A stretch of DNA of 328 nucleotides from Escherichia coli (GTDB lineage: Bacteria; Pseudomonadota; Gammaproteobacteria; Enterobacterales; Enterobacteriaceae): the NCBI RefSeq assembly GCF_003334335.1, contig NZ_QOWQ01000219.1; one strand, given 5' to 3'. The notes below the pieces were generated by a model. It did not search any database, had not been told where the DNA came from, and saw only the letters and a list, made by a program, of their open reading frames with translations. Shown here piece by piece: positions 1-328 of this stretch. Position numbers and translations under genes: made by a program. Numbering within the stretch: the stretch's first letter is position 1; each line of letters begins with the position of its first letter.

Positions 1-308
1 TGCAGTCCGCCCTTTCCGGCACCGGCCAGTCGCGGCACAATGTGGATGACCGTTCCCTCACCCAGCTGTTCGTGAAGACGGGCGTACACCGCCTCCGGTG
101 CCGTGTCCTCACCGGCAATACGTATCTGGTACCAGCCTTCGTTCATCTGACGGCGGAATCCGGGCACCTGTAACGACAGCGCCCGGATGGCTTCCGCTGC
201 CGTGTTCACATACAGGCTGAGGCGGCGGCCAAATCGTTGTAAATCCCCGTAAAGGCAGATGCGTGCCAGTGGCGGTGACGCCAGACAGAATGCGTTCGTC
301 GTTGCCAT
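1..308 (-). CDS. I: Phage tail tip assembly protein I (lambda gpI-like), N-terminal 102 codons; 3' end lies beyond plus position 1
   Basis: Minus-strand ORF starting at ATG (complement of plus 306-308) and open to the window edge. The translation matches my recollection of lambda gpI in blocks such as ARICLYGDLQRFGRR, AEAIRAL, GWYQ(I/V)RIAG and VIHIVPR(L/V)AGA-K-GG. Codon usage and GC third-position bias are consistent with enterobacterial coding DNA. Homology is from memory, not a search. Confidence 0.9.
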   Translation of the reverse strand, partial: MATTNAFCLASPPLARICLYGDLQRFGRRLSLYVNTAAEAIRALSLQVPGFRRQMNEGWYQIRIAGEDTAPEAVYARLHEQLGEGTVIHIVPRLAGAGKGGL

Positions 309-328
309 TTTTCGGAATACCTCTCCCG
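206..328 (-). CDS. K: Phage tail tip assembly protein K (lambda gpK-like, JAB/MPN plus NlpC/P60 family), C-terminal 40 codons plus stop; 5' end lies beyond plus position 328
   Basis: Minus-strand frame open from the window edge to TGA (complement of plus 206-208), translating to RERYSEKWQRRTHSVWRHRHWHASAFTGIYNDLAAASACM*. It overlaps the I start by 103 nt in a different frame, the same overlap length I recall for lambda K/I (K 14276..14875, I 14773..15444). The peptide resembles the lambda gpK C-terminus as I remember it (…RERY..KWQRRTHS.WRHR.W.ASAFTGIYNDL.AAS…). Confidence 0.8.
   Translation of the reverse strand, partial: RERYSEKWQRRTHSVWRHRHWHASAFTGIYNDLAAASACM
320..326 (-). promoter_or_regulatory. 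Candidate Shine-Dalgarno element for gene I (GGAGAGG on the minus strand), lying inside the K coding sequence
   Basis: Minus-strand GGAGAGG sits 11 nt upstream of the I start codon. The spacer is longer than the usual 5-9 nt, so this is a weak or atypical ribosome binding site. No other purine-rich motif lies closer to the ATG. Confidence 0.35.

Follow-up and report, generated by a model that had tools for sequence, protein, structure and literature searches.

The 328-nucleotide (nt) stretch of Escherichia coli DNA analysed here (contig NZ_QOWQ01000219.1, referred to as the window at its full length) has a G+C content of 61% and carries parts of two genes, both on the minus strand: the 3′ end of a gene resembling the tail assembly gene K of bacteriophage lambda and the 5′ part of a gene resembling its neighbour I. 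We consider it very probable that the window is the K-I junction of the tail-tip assembly genes in the late operon of a lambda-like E. coli siphophage, present either as a free phage or as a prophage. The K fragment lies in minus-strand frame 0 and reads RERYSEKWQRRTHSVWRHRHWHASAFTGIYNDLAAASACM up to its stop codon. The I fragment lies in minus-strand frame 2 from its ATG and extends from MATTNAFCLASPPLARICLYGDLQRFGRR to IVPRLAGAGKGGL (whole reading MATTNAFCLASPPLARICLYGDLQRFGRRLSLYVNTAAEAIRALSLQVPGFRRQMNEGWYQIRIAGEDTAPEAVYARLHEQLGEGTVIHIVPRLAGAGKGGL). The coordinates of these fragments and of the features discussed in the text are listed in Table 1.

Table 1. Features of the K-I junction in the 328-nt window
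Feature	Position	Strand	Description
K-like gene, 3′ end	206-328	-	Last 40 codons and TGA stop at 206-208; closing part of the NlpC/P60 domain, then a C-terminal tail of 23 residues
I-like gene, 5′ part	1-308	-	Codons 1-102; ATG at 306-308, runs off at position 1
K/I overlap	206-308	-	103 nt, out of frame; the I frame is -1 relative to K
Shine-Dalgarno-like GGAGAGG	320-326	-	10 nt ahead of the I ATG, within the K coding sequence
GTG	207-209	-	Start of I according to RefSeq/PGAP and the PhiR5_1 record; probably not the real start
32-nt stretch ATCTGCCTTTACGGGGATTTACAACGATTTGG	229-260	-	Identical in the window, lambda, mEp332, cdtI and Salmonella phage Gifsy-2
Predicted ubiquitin-like β-grasp domain of I	18-266	-	Residues 15-97; Pfam Lambda_tail_I model positions 3-83 of 83
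Gly100-Gly101 of I	6-11	-	C-terminal edge of the predicted ubiquitin-like domain; GKGG is residues 98-101

A megablast search of GenBank phages gave Escherichia phage PhiR5_1 (PV340545.1) as the best of 256 records, with 326 of 328 positions identical over the full length of the window (99.4%, E=3e-168), and dozens of Shiga toxin (Stx)-converting phages ranked behind it at 95-99% identity. In PhiR5_1, the features under the match bear the names tail tip assembly proteins I and K, and the names tail assembly protein or C40 family peptidase are used elsewhere. The two mismatches, at positions 171 and 173, fall in one leucine codon (TTA versus CTG), and the K and I fragments of the window are therefore the same at the protein level as those of PhiR5_1, for which the records list E. 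coli C as the host. In IMG/VR, a search with the exact 112-nt pattern of window positions 70-181 returned two contigs, which are identical to the whole window at 327/328 and 321/328 positions. The nearer one is the prophage IMGVR_UViG_643348545_000006, and its sole mismatch, at position 251, exchanges Tyr20 and His20 in I and is synonymous in K. Among complete E. coli genomes, 4147 of 5426 contain a match, with a median of 2 places per genome and a maximum of 14 (13061 places in total), and the top identity of 99.1% is reached by strains that include O104:H4. No exact copy of the window was found in the phage, complete E. coli genome, plasmid, IMG/VR, JGI metagenome or GTDB-representative collections, and the exact pattern of window positions 160-271 had zero matches in JGI metagenome contigs and GTDB representative genomes. 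At every variable position, the allele of the window occurs in some relative, so that the window looks like another variant of a very common sequence.

Protein profiles point to the same two genes. The 40-residue K fragment matches positions 502-541 of 544 in phrog_30 (E=1.9e-18), and the I fragment matches phrog_4244 (E=2.2e-61) and phrog_32 (E=3e-29). A protein database search with the 102 residues of I gave a top identity of 98%, and the entries returned were mostly truncated or frameshifted. The full-length I protein of a relative contains the Pfam domain Lambda_tail_I (PF06805, E=1.6e-16), and its residues 1-224 align to residues 1-223 of lambda gpI (8iyk_I, E=7e-96; also 8iyl, 8k35 and 8xcg). 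The part of I expected to hold a Gly-rich/hydrophobic linker and the C-terminal plug domain is encoded beyond window position 1; in a near-identical relative, residues 137-223 of I align to chain I of 9e7m (E=4e-39). No NCBIfam model names I. The K protein of relatives is annotated as K or as a C40 family peptidase, and a 247-residue K contains the Pfam domains Prok-JAB (residues 3-105, E=7e-15) and NLPC_P60 (residues 111-224, E=1e-12). An earlier reading of the window made without database searches (hereafter the sequence-only reading) had placed K and I fragments on the minus strand, and this assignment is confirmed by the megablast, PHROG, Pfam and PDB gpI matches, which are far stronger than chance would give; a search with the two fragments, which it had named as a check, returned PHROG tail families (rounded, E=2e-61 for I and 2e-18 for K). 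It had also held that the sequence does not tell a free phage from a prophage, and the best matches, which are one isolated phage and several prophages, bear this out.

All testable features place the element in the lambda K/I family. Lambda (NC_001416) and the lineage of the window share the order M-L-K-I-J, the 103-nt out-of-frame overlap and the context of the I start; the I fragment aligns with gpI over the fragment's whole length, and identity in the K tail is ∼78% (26 of 33 residues shared across the overlap). Lambda differs in its nucleotide sequence, with ∼79% identity over window positions 112-328 and positions 1-111 left unaligned by blastn, in its I-J spacer (60 nt, compared with 234-854 nt in the lineage) and in the length of its reference K (199 residues rather than 247). 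The same restriction of blastn alignments to positions 112-328 was seen for lambda-type phages generally, and some Stx2a phages align only from position 94; a mosaic boundary was noted within the ubiquitin-like domain of I, roughly after residue 65. PhiR5_1 and the Stx-converting or O104:H4-type lambdoid prophages are 98.8-99.4% identical over the whole window and have the same operon layout, and they differ from it by two to four single-base changes. The gene order, the pairing of a ubiquitin-like domain with a JAB domain and the role of the gpI C-terminus in the virion have all been published. The window is a textbook lambdoid tail-assembly junction, found in about three quarters of complete E. 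coli genomes and often in several copies, and as such its occurrence here matters little.

The surroundings of the junction were read in relatives. On the strand corresponding to the minus strand of the window, PhiR5_1 and an E. coli prophage of 99.1% identity show the order portal...capsid...V-G-T-H-M-L-K-I-J-lom-side fibre (stf)-tfa, with the head genes upstream; portal, capsid, terminase and lysis genes directly adjoin the tail operon. We also took a sample of 80 IMG/VR loci with an I protein of 96-100% identity, in which the genes H, M, L, K, I, J and lom were then located. J follows I in all 74 loci that have at least 1 kb of downstream sequence, a full K is present in 66 of the 69 loci with at least 1.5 kb upstream, and L lies directly upstream of K in 62 of these 69. 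The order H-M-L-K-I-J-lom was found in six E. coli chromosomes chosen at even steps down the high-identity ranking and in enteropathogenic E. coli (EPEC) E2348/69, and it was kept in 9/9 annotated regions read beyond IMG/VR. By comparison with these relatives, the source DNA would continue beyond position 1 with the remainder of I, which a spacer separates from J, lom and the side-fibre genes, and beyond position 328 with the remainder of K followed by L, M and H. The sequence-only reading had expected J immediately beyond position 1 and L and M beyond position 328. The predicted order and orientation hold in the relatives that could be read, and the word 'immediately' is inexact: J is preceded by ∼373 nt of I and a spacer, which measures 234-254 nt in 25 loci, 338-346 nt in 47 and ∼851-854 nt in 5, and on the other side ∼620 nt of K precede L.

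Some points weigh against this placement. It rests on relatives, and the flanks of the source itself were not read, because the collections searched contain no exact copy. The IMG/VR loci are virus-predicted and were chosen by I identity, and may therefore over-represent intact operons; even among them, K is truncated in three loci (L017, L027 and L068) and four have a 2.1-kb insert between L and K. The window might come from a decayed prophage remnant that kept the K/I junction while K was truncated or L and M (or J) were lost or interrupted, and a few relatives resemble such a remnant: K starts only at residue 82, 108 or 167 in the three truncated loci, L, M and H are all absent from the 6 kb upstream in L068, J lacks its N-terminal part in L016 and L062, and one E. 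coli match spans only window positions 1-107. However, these cases are a small minority, with 3/69 loci for K, none of 74 without J and all nine annotated regions intact; moreover, both frames of the window are open and protein-identical to a phage record, that of PhiR5_1. We regard a remnant as quite improbable. It is in our view extremely unlikely that the window stems from another kind of element that has adopted lambda-type tail-tip genes, for example an F-type tailocin, a gene transfer agent or a phage-plasmid. A plasmid label is attached to 47 of the 13061 E. coli places and to 62 PLSDB records, and F-type tailocins derived from flexible phage tails exist (bioRxiv 10.64898/2026.02.24.707460), but every relative read at 98-99.7% nucleotide identity is a lambdoid phage or prophage, and the capsid, portal and terminase genes of PhiR5_1 and the 99.1%-identical prophage run in the direction of the tail operon. 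Tail genes that stand without capsid, portal, terminase and lysogeny modules, as expected of a tailocin, or an organisation of the gene transfer agent type, are not what the near-identical relatives contain. A plasmid origin was set aside, since the PLSDB records are mostly very large, chromosome-sized, or phage-sized circles; they include one Paenibacillus record, one Stenotrophomonas record and E. coli 'plasmids' of 0.4-1.4 Mb, and these odd records are probably mislabelled chromosome pieces, contaminants or excised phage circles.

Once the window is taken as a K-I junction of a lambda-like phage, the question of where I begins decides how far the two genes overlap. Judging from sequence conservation, translation of I most likely starts at the ATG at 306-308, because this codon and the Shine-Dalgarno-like site ahead of it are conserved and the GTG at 207-209 is not, because the Pfam domain and the first β-strand begin upstream of the GTG, and because the 103-nt overlap recurs in four phages that were annotated independently. 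In lambda (K 14276-14875, I 14773-15444), mEp332, cdtI and Gifsy-2, the deposited annotations contain an overlap of exactly this length, a purine-rich GAGAGG or GAGGGG stands at the equivalent place and the ATG is conserved as well. A start at the GTG would leave a K/I overlap of only 4 nt (GTGA), with the upstream frame untranslated. This is how PGAP annotates I in all eight RefSeq regions read, and how the PhiR5_1 submitters annotated it (L001, L002, L086 and L091-L096 among our regions; 582 nt, giving 193 residues instead of 226), and a GTGA junction is a common form of translational coupling. However, the equivalent codon is GTA in cdtI and ATA in Gifsy-2, and no purine-rich site was found ahead of the GTG in the window. 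Moreover, this start would remove residues 1-33 of I, with its first β-strand and 19 of the 81 matched Pfam positions, whereas the tail-protein profiles phrog_4244 and phrog_4946 match I from residue 1 and the upstream peptide ARICLYGDLQRFG is conserved from E. coli to Salmonella phages. We see little prospect that the GTG is the true start. The annotated start of I in RefSeq-type annotations of this lineage is probably wrong, and the call has consequences, as it hides a conserved 103-nt dual-coding overlap and truncates the ubiquitin-like domain.

Within the overlap, the translations of both frames are conserved in the four phages compared (KWQRRTHSxWRHR..SAFTGIYNDL in K and RICLYGDLQRFG in I). 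The 32-nt stretch that is identical in all of them encodes ..SAFTGIYNDL.. of K and ..ICLYGDLQRFG.. of I together, whereas these phages differ at ∼20-25% of positions elsewhere. Even so, site 251 inside this stretch varies among close relatives, where it gives the Tyr20/His20 exchange mentioned above. Residues 3-14 of I and the last seven residues of K are variable, so that the loose end of each protein overlies the constrained part of the other. In a set of 41 distinct close relatives, the overlap has 15 variable sites, 9 of them at third-codon positions of I (binomial p=0.03), and the part that encodes I only shows the same pattern (22 of 35, p=0.0003). For the overlap, this codon-phase statistic is weak and was computed on related sequences, and we give it a supporting place only. 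An overlap of this kind, with an internal ribosome-binding site for I, probably couples or tunes the synthesis of K and I.

Because I is read in the -1 frame relative to K, a slip in the overlap would fuse K to I, as in the programmed -1 frameshift of lambda G/GT, a different overlap of this tail operon. However, the slippery heptamer X XXY YYZ is missing from the K frame of the overlap in all five phages (the window, lambda, mEp332, cdtI and Gifsy-2), so that a programmed frameshift leading to a K-I fusion is unlikely; I also has its own conserved ATG and Shine-Dalgarno-like site. Fused K and I sequences are nevertheless present in databases: in phrog_28576, a family of 399 positions, a match to K residues 37-240 is followed by one to I residues 15-214, and P0064, an E. 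coli protein of 159 residues, carries both NlpC/P60 (PF00877) and Lambda_tail_I (PF06805). Such fusions may be real or may be the product of 1-nt indels in the overlap.

The I segment of the window was modelled with AlphaFold2. From a shallow alignment of 26 sequences, the 102 residues gave a model of moderate confidence (mean pLDDT 76.9) with the order β14-19, α21-26, β29-33, α37-47, α51-56, β60-64, α71-78 and β87-92. A Foldseek search of the PDB with this model returned SAMP1, MoaD, CysO, Urm1 and ThiS as the top matches (probability 1.00, template modelling score by target 0.6-0.75, E=1.6e-3 to 1e-2), SAMP1 being the best. The model shows the segment to be a predicted MoaD/SAMP-type ubiquitin-like β-grasp domain that ends in Gly-Gly. 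The fold agrees with the profile-based assignment of this domain by Iyer et al. 2006 (PMC1779556), and its first β-strand lies upstream of the start chosen by PGAP, which is a further argument for the ATG. SAMP1, MoaD, CysO and Urm1, which are sulfur-carrier and modifier proteins, are the nearest folds to the I domain, and the JAMM desampylase is the protein to which the K JAB domain has a weak sequence match. They differ from it in being free modifiers, whereas the I domain is fused to the rest of I, and the sequence identity is only 9-21%. The tail operon also differs from the SAMP and MoaD systems in that an E1-like adenylating enzyme is neither known nor seen there.

The glycines at the end of the domain lead to the question of processing. 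Iyer et al. 2006 (PMC1779556) predicted that the JAB domain of K frees the ubiquitin-like domain by cutting at its last conserved glycine, and the window encodes exactly the ubiquitin-like domain and C-terminal glycine of the TAPI family described there, beside the end of a JAB-NlpC/P60 protein of the TAPK family, with no difference from the published arrangement. G100 is invariant in the 26-sequence alignment. In lambda virions, gpI is resolved only from residue 134/135 to 223, where it forms a trimer that plugs the tail-tip lumen and holds the C-terminal helices of gpH, the tape-measure protein, and a hydrophobic stretch following residue 137 may pass into the outer membrane during infection; mass spectrometry of the virion did not detect gpK, which is not resolved in the structures either (PMC10721106, PMC12617516). 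The part of gpI that the window encodes is thus exactly the part that no lambda virion structure resolves. K would then serve in assembly as an enzyme with two peptidase domains, a JAB metallopeptidase and an NlpC/P60 cysteine peptidase, and would process I at the Gly-Gly; the window-encoded I domain would do its work while the tail is assembled and would not be a resolved component of the completed tail.

We put forward only tentatively, as a possibility given less than even weight, that the I domain is a true ubiquitin-like pro-domain cut at Gly100-Gly101 by the JAB domain of K during tail-tip assembly, with the overlap setting the ratio of K to I translation. This proposal, which is in the literature as a prediction, is supported indirectly by the virion data on gpI and gpK given above and by three further observations. 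The JAMM motif HSHPGGLPWLSEAD and the upstream glutamate of AESCGF are intact in the K of relatives, the K JAB domain has a weak similarity to the haloarchaeal desampylase model (E=1.4e-6, below the curated cut-off), and the I domain is nearest to SAMP1. Other points tell against it. We found no experimental proof in the literature that K cleaves I; the mass spectrometry of virions in PMC10721106 reports gpI with the part unspecified; and the N-terminal domain could be missing from cryo-electron microscopy maps through disorder rather than removal. The K/I pair is highly conserved and easily cloned.

The remaining observations concern the genes around the junction and the window itself. In the lambda reference (L003 6695-6842, NC_001416), a 1-nt deletion lies upstream of the annotated K, where GGAGGC-TATTT stands in place of the GGAGGCGTATTT of PhiR5_1 and Gifsy-2. 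It shifts the first ∼45 JAB codons, including the AESCGF glutamate, into another frame, and for this reason lambda K is annotated with 199 rather than 247 residues. The deletion may reflect a genuine mutation, recoding or an error in the old sequence. mEp332 has another 1-nt deletion, which is located in a G run.

The I-J spacer of the lineage is AT-rich (L086 3757-3996, L010 6682-7023, L006 6679-6931 and L001 9582-9821) and can carry a unit antisense to the tail genes, with a promoter TTCACA-16-TATAAT and a terminator that lies 6 nt beyond the I stop codon. The unit of E2348/69 (L086) is PasB, a published Hfq-dependent small RNA (NC_011601 1466343->1466261; northern probe AATCCCGCAGTGATCGCGGAGCT, PMC8550237 supplementary file 8). 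PasB is full-length or nearly so in ∼30 of 83 loci, and in ∼30 further loci, including the two nearest relatives of the window, BLAST matches only its 3′ terminator part. In L006, the promoter and terminator of a PasB-like unit were confirmed and the body is different, and the PhiR5_1 spacer aligns likewise. Thirteen loci, lambda included, have no PasB unit. A weak Rfam match to SSRC34_2 (E=0.087) in the I-J spacer of one relative covers the terminator hairpin only and was rejected.

Further cargo was found inside the tail-tip operon. In L063, a gene for an OmpC-family porin (NF007841, E=4e-149) lies between M and L (972-2543), and a ClpP-related protein (a weak match, below the cut-off) and a 304-residue open reading frame (ORF) with no NCBIfam match lie between L and K (3240-5374). 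Cargo at M|L or L|K is also present in L064 and L065 and partly in L009, L062 and L069, and Gifsy-2 has sodC just upstream of L (L089 3145-3235). The sequence-only reading had described the window as a conserved assembly core and had expected novelty in J, the side fibre or cargo genes further along. The K/I order is indeed kept in relatives, but the core accepts cargo at M|L, L|K and I|J, PasB included, and J and the side fibres are therefore not the only places for novelty.

In the window, the plus-strand ORFs, of 21-43 residues, run antisense to K and I and were set aside as apparent shadows of these two genes. A search of the window against Rfam gave no match at E<=1, and neither a promoter-like nor a terminator-like site was found in it. 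Finally, the record of Aeromonas phage AP1 (MT713136.1, 254 kb) matches window positions 260-328 at 95.7% in its positions 253762-253830, near the end of the record and with no feature annotated, and this match looks like a foreign or chimeric assembly end.

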